In this document: in pieces, positions 396 through 25,229 of the stretch
Layout: every line of letters begins with the position of its first letter
How positions within the stretch are numbered: the first letter of the stretch is position 1
Translations under genes and position numbers: made by a program
The notes under the pieces: generated by a model
The model's input: the letters and a program-made list of their open reading frames with translations, nothing else
Databases searched by the model: none
What the model was told of the DNA's origin: nothing
Assembly: GCA_002011735.1 (NCBI GenBank)
Contig: MTOQ01000058.1
Coordinates: 91 to 64,090 of the forward strand
Reading direction: 5' to 3'
Origin: Nitrospirae bacterium JdFR-81
GTDB lineage: Bacteria; Nitrospirota; Thermodesulfovibrionia; UBA6902
DNA length: 64,000 nucleotides

Positions 396-773
396 ATGAA
401 GAAGCTTTTAGTAGCACTCACACTGATTTCACTCGTTGCAGTAGGGGCAGTGGCTTATGGTCATGGGACAGGTGGCTGGGGCGGATATGGAATGGGCACT
501 GGCTATGGTGGCCACATGATGGGTTACGGTCATATGGGGCCGATGATGGGTGGATATGGCTATGACCAGAGGTTCCTTGACGAGACGGTTGACCTGAGAA
601 GGGAGCTCAATGAGAAGAGGTTTGAGTATTTTGAGGCCCTGCGTAACCCCCAGACAACCCCTGAGAAGATCGCTACCCTTGAAAAGGAGATCTACGAGTT
701 GCAGAGCAAGATCTATGAGAAGTCGCCCCGCACGGGCTTCATGGGCCCTGGCGGCTATGGTCACTGCTGGTAA
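396..773 (+). CDS. Secreted Gly/Met-rich protein with a ZraP/Spy/CpxP-like C-terminal helical domain
   Basis: Strong RBS GGAAAGGAGG precedes the ATG at 396, and the N-terminus is a signal peptide (MKKLLVALTLISLVAVGAVA). The middle is a GYG/MMG-rich tract. The C-terminal 'LxxKRFEYFEALRNP...EKI' matches the ZraP 'KRYEYNALLAANP...KI' region. It is a paralog of the gene at 22447-22965. Confidence 0.6.
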   Translation: MKKLLVALTLISLVAVGAVAYGHGTGGWGGYGMGTGYGGHMMGYGHMGPMMGGYGYDQRFLDETVDLRRELNEKRFEYFEALRNPQTTPEKIATLEKEIYELQSKIYEKSPRTGFMGPGGYGHCW

Positions 774-810: not shown

Positions 811-1296
811 CTATCTCCTTCTGGTTATCTCAATCCCCCACCCTCTTAATCTGTCAATGATGTGGCTTATGAGGGTGTCAAACTGCATCTTTATCTCTTC
901 TGAGAGTTCTGTCCCTGTCTCCAGGGACCCTGGCTGGATCCCTATGAGGCATATCTCTTTAAGGGGGAGCCCCTTCATCCTTATGGCAAAGAACAGGTCA
1001 GAGAGCCCTATCTGGTGGACCGATATCTTGGAGCCCAGGATGGCAGGGATGCTGTCGCCATCTATAAGCTTGATCGTTCCAGGTGGCTTCTTGAGGTCAA
1101 CCGCATCGATTATGATGAGCCTTTCGATATCTTCAAGGAACGGCAAAAGGTCAAGGCCCATTGTGCCACCATCAATGAGCCTCACGCTATCAGGGAACCT
1201 GTATCTCTCCTTCAGCTCCTTTATTACATGAACCCCAACCCCATCATCGCCTGTGAGCAGGTTGCCTACACCCAGTATGCCAGCCCTCACTCCCAC
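811..1296 (-). CDS. Hydrogenase maturation endopeptidase (HyaD/HybD/HoxM family)
   Basis: The N-terminal GVGNLLTGDDGVG motif and the ~160 aa size fit the family. It is the last gene of the hydrogenase operon. Confidence 0.8.
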   Translation of the reverse strand: MGVRAGILGVGNLLTGDDGVGVHVIKELKERYRFPDSVRLIDGGTMGLDLLPFLEDIERLIIIDAVDLKKPPGTIKLIDGDSIPAILGSKISVHQIGLSDLFFAIRMKGLPLKEICLIGIQPGSLETGTELSEEIKMQFDTLISHIIDRLRGWGIEITRRR

Positions 1297-1949
1297 TCTT
1301 TGCCTGTCACAAACTTATAGCCACTGAAGATCGAGCCCATCAGTCCGTTTCTCTCCTTCAGGTCTGCATACCATGCCATGTAGATGTGCAGGAGGGCATA
1401 TGCCAGAATGACATACATGCCAAGATGATGGAAGAGTCTTATGGTCTGAAGGTGCATCACACCTGTAACCCATCCACCAAGGAGGATCCATATCTTGCCT
1501 GAATGATTCAGTGAATACATGGCGAATCCAGAGACTATCTGGAAGAGGAAGATGAGAAAGAGGATGAAATACACAACCCCTGCCAGCGCGGTATGGCCGA
1601 CTGCATAGGGGGGCTTACGGATTATGAAGAGATAGAACTTGATGGCATCAGCAATGTCACGAAGCTTCCTTGATGAAAAAGGGAACCACACCCTGTAGCT
1701 TGCGTATCTGTTGCCCATGAACGCCCAGTAGAGCCTGATTATTATGCTCATCATAAAGGTATAGGCTGCTATGAAGTGGATGAACCTCATCCATCCCATT
1801 ATGTACTGTTTTGATGAGATTGCATGGATGAAGGGGTTGCCGATGTAAAAGCCTGTGATCGAGAGGGTCAGCACGCAGAGGACATTGATCCAGTGCGTAA
1901 ATCTGACAGGAAACTCCCATGCATATACCCTCAGTCTCTCATTCTTCAT
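1287..1949 (-). CDS. Ni/Fe-hydrogenase b-type cytochrome subunit
   Basis: A 220 aa polytopic membrane protein with conserved His residues, sitting immediately downstream of the hydrogenase large subunit (HyaC/HupC-like context). Confidence 0.75.
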   Translation of the reverse strand: MKNERLRVYAWEFPVRFTHWINVLCVLTLSITGFYIGNPFIHAISSKQYIMGWMRFIHFIAAYTFMMSIIIRLYWAFMGNRYASYRVWFPFSSRKLRDIADAIKFYLFIIRKPPYAVGHTALAGVVYFILFLIFLFQIVSGFAMYSLNHSGKIWILLGGWVTGVMHLQTIRLFHHLGMYVILAYALLHIYMAWYADLKERNGLMGSIFSGYKFVTGKEWE

Positions 1950-1961
1950 AAAGGCCTCCCT

Positions 1962-3710
1962 TCAGATCACCTTTATCCTTGTTACCTCCCTGCCCTCGGG
2001 GTCAAGGACATGCACTGCACATGCCATACAGGGGTCAAAGGAATGGACCGTCCTCAATATCTCAACAGGCTGTTCAGGATCTGCAACAGGTGTCCCGATG
2101 AGGGCCGCCTCATAGGGACCCCTCTGATCCTTTGCATCCCTTGGAGAGCCATTCCAGGTGCTCGGGACAACACACTGGTAGTTCTTGATCCTCCTGCCCT
2201 CTATACTCAACCAGTGCCCGAGGGCCCCCCTCGGTGCCTCATGAAATCCATAGCCCCTTGCCTCCTTTGGCCATTCTGATGGGTCCCACCCCTCTCTACT
2301 GTGAATCCTCAGGTCACCCTTCTTCATATTCTCTGCAAGCTGCCCAAGCCATACAGGTATCTGCTCTGCCGTTACAAGGGTCTCAACCCCCCTTGCTGCA
2401 ACCCTTCCAAGGGTTGAAAACAGGGCCGAGGGGCCAACCCCCAGTTTCTGAAGCACACTATCTATGACCTCTTTCACCCTCTTGTGTCCTGATGCATACG
2501 CAACAAGCATCCTTGCAAGTGGGCCCACCTCCATGGGTTTGTCATCATACCTTGGTGCCTTGAGCCATGAATACTTCCCGTCTGTGTCAAGATACTCATA
2601 AGGTGGTTGTGGTCCGGTATACCTATAATTGGTCTCACCATCCCATGGGTGCTTTGAGGTCTTATTACCATCTGAGTATTCATACCAGGAATGTGTCACA
2701 TATTCGGTTATCTTTTCATGATCCACCTTATGGACCTTCGAGAGGTCCTTATTCAGTATGATACCCCTTGGAAGCCACAGGTTCTCTGTATTGCTGACAT
2801 TATCATTCGGGAATTCACCGTATGCAAGAAAGTTTCCAACGCCTCCTCCATAGCCTGCCCATTCCTTGTAGAAGGACGCGACTGCGAGCAGATCGGGGAT
2901 ATAGACCTTCTTGACAAACTCCAGGGCCTTCTCTGCAAGACCTGTCATAAAGGCGATGCTTCCTGCATTCAGGGCATTCTGACTATTGGGATCAATAGGT
3001 ATGGACATACCACCAACGATATAGGTCTGTGCATGGGGATTCTTTGCACCAAGCAATGCCTGCATCTTTATGACATCCCTCTGCCAGTCAAGGGCCTCAA
3101 GGTAGTGTGCCACTGCCATGAGGTTTGCCTCTGGAGGGAGCTTGTACGCAGGATGACCCCAGTATGCATTTGCAAATGGACCAAGCTGGCCCCTCTCAAC
3201 GAAGGCCTTCAGTTTATTCTGCACGCCCTTGAAATACTCTGTGCTCGACTTTGGCCAGTCAGATATGGACTGCGCGAGTGAGGATGTCTTCTTAGGGTCT
3301 GCCTTCAAGGCACTTACGATATCCACCCAGTCAAGGGCGTGGAGGTGATAGAAGTGGATCACATGGTCTTGGACATACTGTATCCCAGTGATAAGATTCC
3401 TTATGAGTCTTGCATTGTCAGGGATGGTTATGTTTAATGCATTCTCGACCGCTCTCACCGAGGCGGTTGCGTGAACCGTTGTTCAGACCCCTCATATACG
3501 CTGGGTGAAATACCATGCATCCCTTGGATCCCTATTCTTGAGTATGAGCTCGATCCCCCTGAACATGGTGCTTGAGCTCCAGGCATCAACCACCCTTCCA
3601 CCCTCCACCTTTGCCTCGATCCTCAGGTGGCCCTCGATCCTTGTTATGGGATCAATGACTATCTTCTTAGCCAACTCATTCACCTCCCTTTTCTTCCTTT
3701 TTTCCTTCAA
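1962..3710 (-). CDS. [NiFe] hydrogenase large subunit with two in-frame TGA codons at the N-terminal Ni-ligand cysteine positions
   Basis: Track ORFs 3492-3710 and 1962-3458 share one frame. The reverse-complement translation reads ...AWYFTQRI-TGA-GV-TGA-TTVHATASVRAVENAL... where the consensus is RxCGxCxxxH. The minus-strand UGA codons correspond to plus-strand 'tca' at 3492-3494 and 3483-3485. The C-terminal DPCMACAVH motif is intact, and ITRIEGH and HFYHLHALDWVD are present. The true start may be the internal GTG near 3683. Confidence 0.8.
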
Positions 3711-4773
3711 ATATGGCCCTTCCTATACCATGGATCAGGAGACCTGCTGCGGTGGCCACTGCAAGGCCTGCCCCGACCTTATCCGCGGTGCTCTCCACCC
3801 CAAACCCTGGCGGATTTGGCAGCCTCTTATAAAATGGGCTCATCTTGTCCCAGAAGTATGGTTCAGCACACCCAACACAACCATGGCCTGCCTGGACAGG
3901 CCAGCTTGTGCCTTCGTTCCATTTAATGGTTGGACAGTTATGGAAGGTCTCGGGCCCTTTACAGCCCATCTCATAAAGGCACCATCCCCTTCTGTGTCCC
4001 TCATCACCCCATCTCCTCACAAACTGCCCTGCATCAAAGTGCGCCCTCCTCTCGCAATTGTCATGGATTCTCTTGCCATATGCAAAATAGGGCCTCCCCA
4101 GTTTATCGGTGAGGGGGAGCGACCCGAATGTTAAGTAATGAACAATACACGCAGTGAGATTCTCTACATTCATGGGACAACCTGGCAGATTGATCACCGT
4201 TGCATTAGGCACCGCCTCCTTGACGCCTACTGCACCTGTAGGATTTGGCTGTGCTGCAGGGATGCCGCCATAGGCAGCACATGTACCCACAGCTATTGTG
4301 GCAAGTGCATTGCCACACACCTCTCTTACGATCTCAACGGCTGACCTGCCTCCGATACAACAATACACACCCCCATCCTTCAATGGAATGGAACCCTCTA
4401 CCACCACAAAGTATTTACCCTTATTGTTTTTAACCACATCCATAAGTGACTTCTCTGCCTGAAAACCTGCAGGCGCCATGATGGTCTCGTGATAATCCAC
4501 AGAGAGGATATCAAGGATGATCTGTGCAACAGTGGGCTTGGTTGCCCTTAGGAGAGACTCTGTATCTCCGGCGCAGTCCTGAAACTCAAGCCACACAAGA
4601 TAGGGCTTTTTTGCATTGGTGAGTGCCTCTGCCATCCTTGGTGCAAATGAGGCAGGAAGGGCAAGCAGTGCACTCATTGCAGTGCAGAACTTCATAAAAT
4701 CCCTGCGCGATACCTTTTTGTTGAGGAAGGAAAGGGTCTCTGTGGAGGGGTCTTTCTCTAATACAGGGTCCAT
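3676..4773 (-). CDS. [NiFe] hydrogenase small subunit with twin-arginine signal peptide
   Basis: The SRRDFMKFC Tat motif is present. Cys clusters match small-subunit Fe-S ligands (CxGCxE, GCPP-like, HxxCPxxKW, CxGCxEP). The C-terminal TM anchor is typical of membrane-bound group-1 enzymes. Confidence 0.85.
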   Translation of the reverse strand: MDPVLEKDPSTETLSFLNKKVSRRDFMKFCTAMSALLALPASFAPRMAEALTNAKKPYLVWLEFQDCAGDTESLLRATKPTVAQIILDILSVDYHETIMAPAGFQAEKSLMDVVKNNKGKYFVVVEGSIPLKDGGVYCCIGGRSAVEIVREVCGNALATIAVGTCAAYGGIPAAQPNPTGAVGVKEAVPNATVINLPGCPMNVENLTACIVHYLTFGSLPLTDKLGRPYFAYGKRIHDNCERRAHFDAGQFVRRWGDEGHRRGWCLYEMGCKGPETFHNCPTIKWNEGTSWPVQAGHGCVGCAEPYFWDKMSPFYKRLPNPPGFGVESTADKVGAGLAVATAAGLLIHGIGRAIFEGKKEEKGGE

Positions 4774-22406: not shown

Positions 22407-22455
22407 TCTCCATCTCCCTTCATCATTTAGTTGATGGAATGGAGGGTTATTTTGC
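22407..22455. terminator. Bidirectional terminator hairpin between tRNA-Met and the convergent ZraP-like gene
   Basis: An imperfect inverted repeat CTCCATCTCCCTTCATCA...TGATGGAATGGAG followed by a TTATTTTG tract. Confidence 0.4.
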
Positions 22456-22965
22456 CTTCTCGTATATCTTTCTCTGAAGCTCCTGGATCTCCTTCTGGAG
22501 TTTTATAACGGTCTCCGTCTTTGTCTCAGGGTTACGGAGGGCTTCATAATATTCAAAGGTCTTGCTATTGAGCTGCCTCCTGAGATCGACCGTTTCATCA
22601 AGAAACCTCTGGTACCTCTCTGCACCATAACCCCACATCATACCAGGCCCCATCATCCCGCATCCACCATAGCCCATGCCGGATCCCATCATCATGTTGT
22701 GCATCATCCCATAACCATAACAAGGGCATGTGCCATAACCCATCATCCCTGATCCCATACCATATCCACCCATCATTCCTGGCCCCATCATGCCCATCAT
22801 CCCATAGCCCATCATCTGATACGGACTATAGTAGGTAGAGGTGGTTTCCATCCCTTCGTGGCGTCCCTGACCGCCACCACTCATCATGCCTCCCTCCATA
22901 TGGGCGAGGCTATCTGTTGTCAGTACGGCCAAGACCAGCAATATGCTTAAAAGGATACCCTTCAT
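22447..22965 (-). CDS. Secreted Gly/Met-rich ZraP/Spy/CpxP-like protein (paralog of 396-773)
   Basis: A signal peptide and a long MMG/GYG tract with CPC/GGCG motifs. The C-terminal RFLDETVDLRRQLNSKTFEYYEALRNPETK tail is nearly identical to that of the first paralog. Confidence 0.6.
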   Translation of the reverse strand: MKGILLSILLVLAVLTTDSLAHMEGGMMSGGGQGRHEGMETTSTYYSPYQMMGYGMMGMMGPGMMGGYGMGSGMMGYGTCPCYGYGMMHNMMMGSGMGYGGCGMMGPGMMWGYGAERYQRFLDETVDLRRQLNSKTFEYYEALRNPETKTETVIKLQKEIQELQRKIYEKAK

Positions 22966-22983
22966 CTCTTTTTACCTCCTTTT

Positions 22984-23163
22984 TTAACAACAATGACCAT
23001 GCATTTCATGGTCCTCTGTCTCTTCTGTATACCTCTCTGGCTCCCTCTCAAATGCCTCCTTACAGCCTACTGCACAGAAATAATAGGTCTTTCCCCTGTA
23101 TTCGGTCTTTGCCACGGCCTCATCCTCCCTAATCCTCATGTGACACACTGGATCGACCACCAT
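22984..23163 (-). CDS. YHS/TRASH-domain small metal-binding protein (59 aa, absent from the ORF track)
   Basis: Manual translation gives MVVDPVCHMRIREDEAVAKTEYRGKTYYFCAVGCKEAFEREPERYTEETEDHEMHGHCC. The DPVCxM...YYFC..GC signature and a strong RBS (AAAGGAGGTGA) support it. Confidence 0.65.
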   Translation of the reverse strand: MVVDPVCHMRIREDEAVAKTEYRGKTYYFCAVGCKEAFEREPERYTEETEDHEMHGHCC

Positions 23164-23312
23164 CTTCCCTTCACCTCCTTTCTTTGGCTTTAAGGTTTAA
23201 TCTATATATACCATACCCCCCTATGGTATGTCAAGGAAGGCCTACAGGAGAATAGATTAAACATTTACAATCATTATTATTTGGGATATAATGGGACTAA
23301 AGGCGGAGGATA

Positions 23313-24215
23313 ATGATACCTTATATTATCGCCCTTATAATGGCCTCCCTTATCTCCCTGATTCCCCAATCTTCCCGTGCGGAGAAGGCAAAAACGATTG
23401 ATGAGCTTGTAAAGATGTATGATATCACCCGGTGTATAGGGTGCCACAGGGACAAGTATGAGGAGTGGAAGGACTCGACCATGGGCAATTCGGTTGTTGA
23501 CCCCCGTGTCCTGAGGGGCTGGAGGACGTTCATAAGGCTTGAGCTTGATCAGGAGCCCACCCTCTCAAGGAAGGATCTGACCATATGCCTCAACTGTCAT
23601 GTGCCCCAGATAAAGGACGCCACACCAGAACTTGTTGAGCATATCGCGGAACTCGTGATAATGGCCGTTGAGGATAAAGATGAGGGGAAAAGGGAATACG
23701 CAAGGAAGGAGCTTTCAAAGCTCAATCTTAACTGTCTCAGTTGTCATCATTTAAGGGCAAGGGGGTTTGAGGGTGAGCCAGAGGAGGGGGTGCTTTACGG
23801 CCCCAGGGAGATAACCTCCTCTCCACATGAGGGCATAGGCTTCAAGACCAAAAGGTCAGCCCTAATGTCAAAGTCCGATTTCTGTGCACAGTGTCATCAC
23901 TGCCCACCCAGCGTCCCGTGGGAACAGTGTCCGACACTTTATACCTCATATGTTGAGGGCTTCCTTGAGAAGGGCAGGAAGGAGACCTGTCAGGACTGTC
24001 ACATGAGGGATGTTGACAGATCAAAGAAGTCAGGAGGCTGGAACCACAGATTCTATGGACCTGATGATATCGAATTTCTCAAGTCCGCGATCACACTGAA
24101 CGTAAGGGCAAGGCCCACAAGGTATATTGATATGTACGAGGGCAGGTTCATTCCCGCAGTGGTCCTTGAGGTTGAACTCACAAATAATGCAGGCCATGTC
24201 ATGCCCCATGGCTGA
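23313..24215 (+). CDS. Pentaheme c-type cytochrome
   Basis: A signal peptide and five CxxCH motifs (CIGCH, CLNCH, CLSCH, CAQCH, CQDCH). It ends at a TGA that is in frame with the next ORF. Confidence 0.75.
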   Translation: MIPYIIALIMASLISLIPQSSRAEKAKTIDELVKMYDITRCIGCHRDKYEEWKDSTMGNSVVDPRVLRGWRTFIRLELDQEPTLSRKDLTICLNCHVPQIKDATPELVEHIAELVIMAVEDKDEGKREYARKELSKLNLNCLSCHHLRARGFEGEPEEGVLYGPREITSSPHEGIGFKTKRSALMSKSDFCAQCHHCPPSVPWEQCPTLYTSYVEGFLEKGRKETCQDCHMRDVDRSKKSGGWNHRFYGPDDIEFLKSAITLNVRARPTRYIDMYEGRFIPAVVLEVELTNNAGHVMPHG

Positions 24216-24218
24216 GCA

Positions 24219-24536
24219 GTGATGCCAAGGGCGGTGCTGGAGGTCACCGTGAAGGATGATAAAAAAGAGGTGGTGTTTGCAAGAGAGCACGAGTTTACGG
24301 TCAACGATCTCTATTTTAAGGGTGGGAAACAGGTTGCAATGGCAGAATGGGATATAACAGCCACTGAACACTTTGACCTCGGTGTCAGACCCATTGAGCC
24401 ATATAAGTTTACATATGTAATACCACTAAGCCCTGACACGGCCTCTATTGAGGCAATCGCCCAGTTCAGATATCTCTATTCCCGTGATAAGACATTCGAT
24501 GTTCAGAGGGCCTCACATAAAGTCGTCATAGAGTAA
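24219..24536 (+). CDS. Hypothetical protein, in frame with and possibly a C-terminal continuation of the cytochrome
   Basis: It shares the frame of 23313-24215, separated only by TGA and GCA. Its N-terminus (PRAVLEVTVKDD) repeats the cytochrome's C-terminus (PAVVLEVELTNN). Confidence 0.4.
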   Translation: MMPRAVLEVTVKDDKKEVVFAREHEFTVNDLYFKGGKQVAMAEWDITATEHFDLGVRPIEPYKFTYVIPLSPDTASIEAIAQFRYLYSRDKTFDVQRASHKVVIE

Positions 24537-24595: not shown

Positions 24596-25027
24596 ATGGA
24601 AGAGATCGGGATAGTAAAGAGTGTTGACGGTGCCATGGCAAAGGTGGTCCTGGCACGCAGGAGCAGCTGCTGTGAGAGCTGTGAGAAGGATGTCTGCGAC
24701 ATCCCCGAAGAAGGGGTTGAGACCGAGGCCATAAATCAGGCAGGTGCAAAGGTCGGACAGAGGGTAAAGGTGGTGATGAAGCCCTATACCTTTATAAAGG
24801 GTGCTCTCGTCCTGTATCTCTTCCCAGTGGTCGCCCTGTTCTTGGGTGCCTTTGCCGGAAAGGTGTATCTGAGCAGGCTATTTGAAGGGACGGACAGTGA
24901 GCTCCTTGCAGCAGCCGGTTCACTCATCGCGTTTTCTGTCTCGCTCTTCTTCGTAAAGATAATCTCAGGGAGGATGTCTAAGAAGACGGAATACAAGTCC
25001 GTTATCGAATCTATTGTGGAGGGATGA
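24596..25027 (+). CDS. RseC/MucC-family protein (SoxR-reducing-system-like)
   Basis: An N-terminal Cys cluster (SCCESCEKDVC) followed by two TM helices, with an RseC-like size and layout. Confidence 0.5.
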   Translation: MEEIGIVKSVDGAMAKVVLARRSSCCESCEKDVCDIPEEGVETEAINQAGAKVGQRVKVVMKPYTFIKGALVLYLFPVVALFLGAFAGKVYLSRLFEGTDSELLAAAGSLIAFSVSLFFVKIISGRMSKKTEYKSVIESIVEG

Positions 25028-25028
25028 G

Positions 25029-25229
25029 ATGGCAGAGGTTACATTAAAGATCGAGGGTATGAGCTGCCAGCACTGTGTTATGAGTGTAAAGAAGGCAGTT
25101 GATTCACTGGATGGGGTGAGCTCATCGGATGTGGAGGTCGGAAGCGCAAGGGTGGTCTATGACGAAAGCAGGCTTTCTGAAGAGGCGATAAGGGAGGCCA
25201 TCAACCGTGCAGGTTATAAGGTGGTTTAA
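25029..25229 (+). CDS. copZ: Heavy-metal-associated (HMA) domain copper chaperone, CopZ-like
   Basis: The GMSCQHC metal-binding motif sits in a ~67 aa ferredoxin-like fold. Confidence 0.75.
   Translation: MAEVTLKIEGMSCQHCVMSVKKAVDSLDGVSSSDVEVGSARVVYDESRLSEEAIREAINRAGYKVV

Follow-up and report, generated by a model that had tools for sequence, protein, structure and literature searches.

An interrupted pentaheme cytochrome c gene of Nitrospirae bacterium JdFR-81 is very probably a single selenoprotein gene of the MccSep/ExtKL family

Contig MTOQ01000058.1 of Nitrospirae bacterium JdFR-81 (assembly GCA_002011735.1; Nitrospirota, Thermodesulfovibrionia) carries an open reading frame (ORF) for a pentaheme cytochrome c that ends at a TGA codon and is followed by a shorter ORF in the same frame. 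This raises the question whether the locus harbors two genes, one gene damaged by a mutation, or one gene in which the UGA is decoded. In the 64,000 nucleotides analyzed here (contig positions 91 to 64,090, hereafter the window), positions 23313-24536 very probably form one gene of the MccSep/ExtKL family, in which the UGA at 24213-24215 is recoded as selenocysteine (Sec). This reading puts right an annotation error, with one gene in place of two hypothetical proteins, and extends a selenoenzyme family associated with respiration of elemental sulfur by a member from the Thermodesulfovibrionia.

Reading frame and junction codon

The ORFs at 23313-24215 and 24219-24536 share a common frame, and its sole interruption is the TGA at 24213-24215 (ATG 23313 ... 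GGC(Gly300) TGA(24213-24215) GCA GTG ATG ... TAA(24534-24536)). The upstream ORF encodes 300 residues, contains five CxxCH motifs (residues 41-45, 92-96, 141-145, 191-195 and 226-230) and ends in ...NNAGHVMPHG directly before the TGA, after which 106 further in-frame codons follow up to the TAA at 24534-24536. Re-reading of the frame thereby confirmed two statements of the initial annotation, the single frame split by one TGA and the five CxxCH motifs. Public records and automatic gene callers give two hypothetical proteins of 300 and 104 amino acids. The identical TGA occurs in two independent assemblies from the same organism, a JGI 3300037583 metagenome contig and the Logan assembly SRR12613063, and is thus no local assembly error. 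The features on which the argument rests are the following.

23313..24536, + strand: very probably a single selenoprotein gene of 407 residues, encoding an MccSep/ExtKL pentaheme c-type cytochrome with Sec301, mis-called as 300 plus 104/105 amino acids (from homologs, NF040886 and PDB 9wt8/9wt9)
24192..24215, + strand: active-site loop A-G-H295-V-M-P-H299-G-U301 with the proposed Sec codon TGA 24213-24215, corresponding to MccSep U325 (from homologs and alignment)
24231..24250, + strand: bacterial SECIS-type (selenocysteine insertion sequence) hairpin GCGGUG / CUGGAGGU / CACCGU, 16 nt 3' of the UGA and inside the codons for A-V-L-E-V-T-V (from comparative evidence)

The concatenated 407-residue product was used as a query for relatives and returned 235, of which 120 were listed. 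Among the matches listed, 33 are full-length proteins of 388-656 amino acids, and all 33 contain a Cys directly after GHxxP(H/S/N)G. Also among these matches are ~84 clusters of 230-333 amino acids that all end exactly at the Gly of GHxxPxG, the pattern expected of gene callers stopping at a conserved UGA. The initial annotation had considered a Cys at this site in uninterrupted homologs as telling, and the 33 proteins show it at the exact position. Homologs consistently divided into two genes, or a residue other than Cys or a gap opposite the TGA, which it had named as contrary signs, were looked for and did not appear.

The same picture emerged at the DNA level in loci from species-representative genomes of Nitrospirota, Desulfobacterota and others (the window and its two duplicate contigs are counted in). 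At the junction, TGA is found in 61 cases and TGT or TGC in six; neither TAA nor TAG occurs. After the junction codon the frame normally stays open for 100-130 more codons, with a conserved xxxP(K/R)xVL(E/D)VT... segment. Cys-type homologs from Nitrospirota metagenome-assembled genomes (e.g. P0002-P0020, ~400 amino acids, annotated as 'hypothetical protein') share clade (56-63% identity), length and PHG motif with the window protein, but differ by a TGT/TGC codon and by loss of the downstream hairpin. They display the uninterrupted form of the protein.

The sequence beyond the TGA is under purifying selection. In L083 and L084, the closest relatives found (proteins ~80% identical), the TGA has persisted at a proportion of synonymous differences (pS) of 0.55-0.72. 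In this comparison the ratio of nonsynonymous to synonymous substitution rates (dN/dS) is 0.07-0.13 after the TGA versus 0.05-0.10 before it. Since the TGA has been kept near synonymous saturation and downstream dN/dS is low, a recent nonsense mutation is excluded and the downstream part is translated.

A hairpin conserved behind the UGA

The 6-bp stem-loop that had been noted at 24231-24250, starting 16 nt after the TGA, was confirmed, and it has counterparts in nearly all Sec-type genes. There the hairpin occupies UGA+19 to +38, with the consensus G(U/C)GGUC-CUGGA(A/U)GU-GACCGC. Each of the five core pairs forms in 98-100% of 55 distinct Sec-type sequences; over these sequences 93.5% of cells are paired, compared to 19-63% after sliding of the partners by 1-3 columns. 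In four pairs both sides have changed, where 0.5 such pairs would be expected, and none of 500 shuffles reached the observed values. Two of the core pairs link third-codon (synonymous) positions and both show compensatory switches, from G-C to A-U in three sequences and from C-G to G-C in the window. The latter, produced by two synonymous Val changes (GUC to GUG and GUG to GUC), also occurs in the closest relatives. The six Cys-type genes, with a similar encoded peptide, form the core pairs in only 33-67%. The SECIS-like stem-loop within ~30-40 nt downstream of the UGA by which Sec-type MccSep/ExtKL genes are recognized is present in the window, and the hairpin is a SECIS-type element that putatively recruits SelB. 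A scan of the window at Rfam gathering thresholds yielded tRNA-Met only, with no match to a SECIS family and no tRNA-Sec.

Family membership, rival readings and proposed mechanism

The read-through protein matched the NCBIfam equivalog NF040886, 'multiheme c-type cytochrome (seleno)protein ExtKL', with 276.7 bits (E = 2.5e-82; residues 17-404 to profile positions 24-420 of 423), the curated cutoff being 250 bits. It also matched the 'multiheme cytochrome c selenoprotein (MccSep)' of the Protein Data Bank (PDB) entries 9wt8/9wt9 with E ~3e-40, and the TGA aligned exactly with U325 of this protein. The earlier proposal that both halves belong to one protein and that the TGA possibly encodes Sec thus gains support from the Cys alignment, the junction codons (TGA or a Cys codon, never another stop) and the match to U325.

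MccSep, which is identical to ExtKL, is encoded by GSU2937-GSU2936 of Geobacter sulfurreducens (PDB 9wt8/9wt9/9wta-c; Mihara et al., Sci Adv 2026, PMC13510729). It is a periplasmic, homotetrameric pentaheme protein with a cleaved signal peptide (residues 1-25), made as one polypeptide via Sec insertion according to mass spectrometry and a content of ~1 Se per subunit (PMC13510729). The single chain comprises an alpha-helical heme cap and a C-terminal immunoglobulin-like (Ig-like) domain; heme 2 has H122 and C239 as its ligands, and U325 of the Ig-like domain is positioned ~3.6 Å from the sulfur of C239 (PMC13510729). The enzyme acts as a reductase on polysulfide and to a lesser degree on selenite, and respiration of elemental sulfur depends on it. 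R83, an anion/substrate-binding residue, and K372 are catalytically important in Geobacter MccSep (PMC13510729). Of 637 homologs collected in a survey, 394 were recovered by reading through a UGA; the main sources are Desulfobacterota and Nitrospirota (class Thermodesulfovibrionia), and the Cys-types lie nested within the Sec-types (PMC13510729). ExtKL/NF040886 is listed among the recognized bacterial selenoprotein families in a 2026 review (PMC13188914), and the in silico prediction of its Sec codon predates 2018. The window protein is a divergent member of this already known family. Family, Sec codon, SECIS, mechanism and occurrence in Thermodesulfovibrionia were already published in 2026 and novelty is low; the residual interest lies in the active-site substitutions of its clade and in its unusual neighbourhood.

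For a residue-level comparison, MccSep residues 37-445 were rebuilt from printed alignments and aligned with 64 read-through proteins (65 sequences in total). The window protein shares ~30% identity with MccSep over 372 aligned positions. All five CxxCH columns align with MccSep motifs in the same order and are each conserved in 64-65 of the 65 sequences. The equivalents of the heme 2 ligands are H96 for the proximal H122 (64/65) and C206 for the distal C239 (65/65). The column of U325, occupied by U301, is U or C in 65/65, and R83 corresponds to R65 (38/65). The two proteins further resemble each other in a SECIS hairpin in the same register over V-L-E/D-V-T, in the splitting of the gene by annotators at the same TGA and, probably, in an N-terminal signal peptide. 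The corresponding features are:

23313..23381, + strand: probable Sec-pathway export signal peptide (MIPYIIALIMASLISLIPQSSRA, followed by EK; from the hydrophobic N-terminus and MccSep analogy)
23433..23447, + strand: heme 1 motif C41-x-x-C44-H45, conserved 64/65, the exception being a gapped sequence
23505..23507, + strand: Arg65, corresponding in the alignment to MccSep R83, anion/substrate-binding
23586..23600, + strand: heme 2 (active-site heme) motif C92-x-x-C95-H96; H96 corresponds to the proximal ligand H122 of MccSep (role from PMC13510729)
23733..23747, + strand: heme 3 motif C141-x-x-C144-H145, conserved 65/65
23883..23897, + strand: heme 4 motif C191-x-x-C194-H195, conserved 65/65
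23928..23930, + strand: Cys206 (TGT), corresponding to MccSep C239 and presumed distal thiolate ligand of heme 2 by reference to the homolog crystal structure
23988..24002, + strand: heme 5 motif C226-x-x-C229-H230, conserved 65/65
24060..24533, + strand: probable C-terminal Ig-like beta-sandwich, ~residues 250-407, with the Sec loop between two strands (from the proxy model, Foldseek and the description of MccSep)

Differences from MccSep occur around the active site. In the mobile Sec loop, Asp323 is replaced by His299 (window 24207-24209; His in 12/65) and Pro326 by Ala302, in a variable column. His74 is replaced by Met57 (window 23481-23483; Met in 12/65), which possibly indicates a His/Met-ligated heme, and Gly226 by an extra His196 in a CHH motif (window 23898-23900; His in 13/65). 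The C-terminal domain is shorter, and the position of K372 is taken by Ile348. As features specific to the clade, Met57, His196, His299 and the residue at the K372 column may alter redox tuning or substrate preference. By its sequence the window protein belongs to a separate 'PHG-U' clade, which also includes all six Cys-type genome loci.

The structure was modeled with AlphaFold2 (AF2) on a Cys-type proxy, P0004, which is 61% identical to the window protein. In the model the N-terminal half is helical, and the C-terminal half forms a beta-sandwich predicted with confidence, with strands at 252-265, 270-283, 298-307, 312-323 and 355-397, a predicted local distance difference test score (pLDDT) of ~90 in most of them, and the Sec/Cys loop between strands 270-283 and 298-307. 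Foldseek searches with the model returned matches to Ig-like/ApaG-type sandwiches. The fold bears on a duplicated strand motif that the initial annotation had described on both sides of the stop and explained as an old protein-level repeat. The similarity of IPAVVLEVELTNN and MPRAVLEVTVKDD is real (5/13 identical), but 5/13 is the maximum among the 65 family members and the mode is 2/13, which rules out an ancient internal duplication. The two segments are consecutive beta-strands of the probable Ig-like domain, flanking the Sec loop. Sec-type genes show exceptionally little variation in the downstream strand, since its V-L-E/D-V-T codons form the SECIS hairpin as well.

Other cytochromes are more distant. 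The pentaheme cytochrome c552 of Thermochromatium tepidum (PDB 5ze8) matches weakly in sequence around the first heme (E = 1.4e-5) and is the best Foldseek match to the P0004 model (E = 2.5e-12; the PDB library was older than 9wt8), but the TM-score is 0.35, the identity 19%, and it has no selenoprotein annotation. TsdA and SoxAX have been likened to MccSep, as they use a Cys thiolate as sixth heme ligand in sulfur-sulfur bond chemistry (PMC13510729). They differ in having unrelated folds and no Sec, and in oxidizing thiosulfate instead of reducing polysulfide; no sequence match between the window protein and TsdA or SoxAX was found.

Several observations weigh against a Sec-dependent MccSep-like enzyme. 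Neither selA, selB, selD nor a tRNA-Sec was found within the 64-kb window, so that Sec decoding by the organism is inferred indirectly; Pfam scans of 20 large window ORFs likewise gave no SelA, SelB or SelD, a result that is uninformative for a 64-kb slice. The fold energy of the isolated hairpin is not significant (z = -0.83), and the evidence for the hairpin is thus comparative, not thermodynamic. Lys at the K372 column is found in only 29/65 sequences, all of the Geobacter-type clade, and the clade of the window protein has Ile or Val there; the nearby K336 and K339 could be structural substitutes, in a region where the model is unreliable. The P0004 model has a mean pLDDT of 68 with active-site segments below 50, so that proximity of Sec301 and Cys206 is presumed from the homolog. 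Finally, the neighbours include no Geobacter ext cluster (extHIJKLMNOPQS, with the rhodanese ExtH, the porin ExtI, ExtJ and cytochromes), a mismatch that concerns the cluster and not the protein family.

Three other explanations of the TGA were weighed. Two genuine genes, a 300-residue pentaheme cytochrome ended by the TGA and a separately initiated protein of 104/105 residues, are what automatic callers annotate, and GTG 24219 and ATG 24222 would be usable as starts. This arrangement is nevertheless highly improbable, as the Cys-type homologs are single polypeptides of 400 residues with Cys at the exact site and the stop in the 61 loci is always TGA, never TAA or TAG. Moreover, no Shine-Dalgarno sequence precedes 24219 or 24222, the crystallized homolog is a single chain whose Ig-like domain spans the junction, and no Pfam family is assigned to the downstream piece alone. 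Even less weight can be given to a recent nonsense mutation in a pseudogene or a sequencing error from TGC or TGT to TGA. Only one substitution separates the TGA from the TGT/TGC of Cys-type relatives, but the codon recurs in the two other independent assemblies and in ~80%-identical relatives near synonymous saturation, with the low downstream dN/dS given above, and the hairpin is upheld by compensatory synonymous changes. Both possibilities had been retained as hedges in the initial annotation; TGA conservation, the SECIS hairpin and downstream purifying selection led to their rejection.

Programmed readthrough in which a near-cognate tRNA supplies a standard amino acid (Trp or Cys) instead of Sec is very unlikely, if somewhat less so than the preceding two. 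Some bacterial lineages reassign or read through UGA, and no Sec machinery was seen in the window. However, UGA is an ordinary stop elsewhere in the window, for example in the hydrogenase large subunit gene, the TGA site pairs specifically with Cys among homologs, and the hairpin has the position and the GG-containing loop of bacterial SECIS elements. Furthermore, Sec has been identified at the exact residue in the homolog by mass spectrometry and selenium analysis (PMC13510729).

With Sec as the favoured reading of the UGA, a mechanism can be proposed by analogy with MccSep. The hairpin at 24231-24250 would recruit SelB carrying Sec-tRNA(Sec), so that translation proceeds through the UGA at 24213-24215, read as Sec, over another 106 codons. 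Periplasmic export of the product is probable, and five c-type hemes would be bound via the CxxCH motifs in an alpha-helical N-terminal cap. The loop of the C-terminal Ig-like beta-sandwich (GHVMPHG-U) would set Sec301 beside heme 2, with His96 as proximal and Cys206 as distal ligand. The selenolate may then attack a polysulfide (or selenite) held near Arg65 and pass the adduct to the heme-bound sulfur of Cys206, and electrons delivered via the heme chain would cleave chalcogen-chalcogen bonds and release sulfide. If so, the gene points to selenium dependence of the organism and to a capacity for sulfur or polysulfide reduction. Of all steps in the mechanism, the substrate is least certain, because identity to MccSep is ~30% and the window protein has His299 for Asp323, Ala302 for Pro326, Met57 for His74 and no Lys372. 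It is unlikely, though deserving some weight, that the PHG-U clade comprises not polysulfide reductases but Sec/heme enzymes with another substrate, tied to metal or chalcogen stress; detoxification of selenite or tellurite or the handling of copper-reactive sulfur species could be examples. This reading is based on His299, Met57, the missing Lys372, the nested Cys-types and the trio of the cytochrome gene with RseC and CopZ-like HMA genes, conserved in the closest relatives, beside a CsoR-type copper operon (see below).

Genomic surroundings and further observations

Features flanking the selenoprotein gene are:

22984-23163, - strand: YHS-domain gene, divergent, upstream of the cytochrome gene
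23264..23292, + strand: putative sigma-70-like promoter TTTACA-17-TATAAT with a match of 11/12, its end 20 nt 5' of the start codon
23302..23309, + strand: Shine-Dalgarno-like GGCGGAGG, read from the sequence just 5' of ATG 23313
24596-25027, + strand: RseC/MucC-family gene downstream of the cytochrome gene, followed by an HMA/CopZ-like gene

The promoter block recurs in conserved form, as TTTACAAT...TATAAT/TATCAT, ahead of the L083 and L084 orthologs. The domains encoded next to the cytochrome gene are YHS, RseC_MucC, HMA, RNase H and RNase R. At 22447-23163 (-) and 24596-25229 (+) the window encodes the YHS protein, a Met/Gly-rich secreted protein of 172 amino acids (MMGYGMMGMMGPGMMGG...), RseC/MucC and the CopZ-like HMA protein, and the surroundings of the selenoprotein gene look like a copper-homeostasis neighbourhood. 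The trio of cytochrome, RseC and HMA genes is conserved in the closest relatives only, and the neighbours of the window gene were not found near homologs of 58-64% identity. No redox partner is conserved nearby within the clade, where the sole recurrent neighbour is a GlgC-like gene on the opposite strand. In L083 a fusion of YHS and pyridine nucleotide-disulfide oxidoreductase and a P-type ATPase follow.

The intergenic region between the YHS gene and the cytochrome gene contains a perfect palindrome, ATACCATA-CCCCCC-TATGGTAT, at 23208-23229. The same 28-nt palindrome block is found in L083, where the divergent operon is headed by a CsoR/RcnR-family repressor gene (PF02583, with the Cys-His-Cys signature of Cu(I) sensors). 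It is absent in L084, whose upstream genes differ. The palindrome is probably a CsoR-type operator of a copper operon, with the repressor gene located outside the window.

Some genomes harbor paired family members. Locus L009 (positions 6871 and 11869) has two within a few kb, a Cys-type copy of the PHG clade and a Sec-type copy of a PDG clade, in which the open frame after the TGA is shortened. L034 (positions 5151 and 6799) has two Sec-type copies within a few kb. These pairs suggest functional diversification between clades. In a further subfamily (L019-L022, L026, L036, L040, L049, L051, L063 and L064) an extra GHxFPGGH is located ~46-55 residues upstream of a GHRIPDG-U loop and resembles a duplicate of the loop motif in the Ig-like domain.

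A second use of Sec on this replicon, in a hydrogenase, had also been proposed by the initial annotation and could not be upheld: the sole [NiFe] large-subunit C-terminal motif in the window is DPCMACAVH, with Cys. The TGA at 1964 is the ordinary stop of the large subunit gene, after which the gene for the cytochrome b subunit follows in the same frame. It mimics a read-through candidate and was rejected as such; the position of Sec in [NiFeSe] enzymes is taken by Cys here. The [NiFe] hydrogenase operon extends over window positions 1287-4773 (-) and comprises a probable small subunit gene (3676-4773), the large subunit gene and the cytochrome b subunit gene. A second stretch with a link to the surroundings of the cytochrome gene is located at window positions 567-725 (+), where a homolog (~70% identity over 53 amino acids) of the C-terminal part of the Met-rich periplasmic protein beside the YHS gene is encoded.

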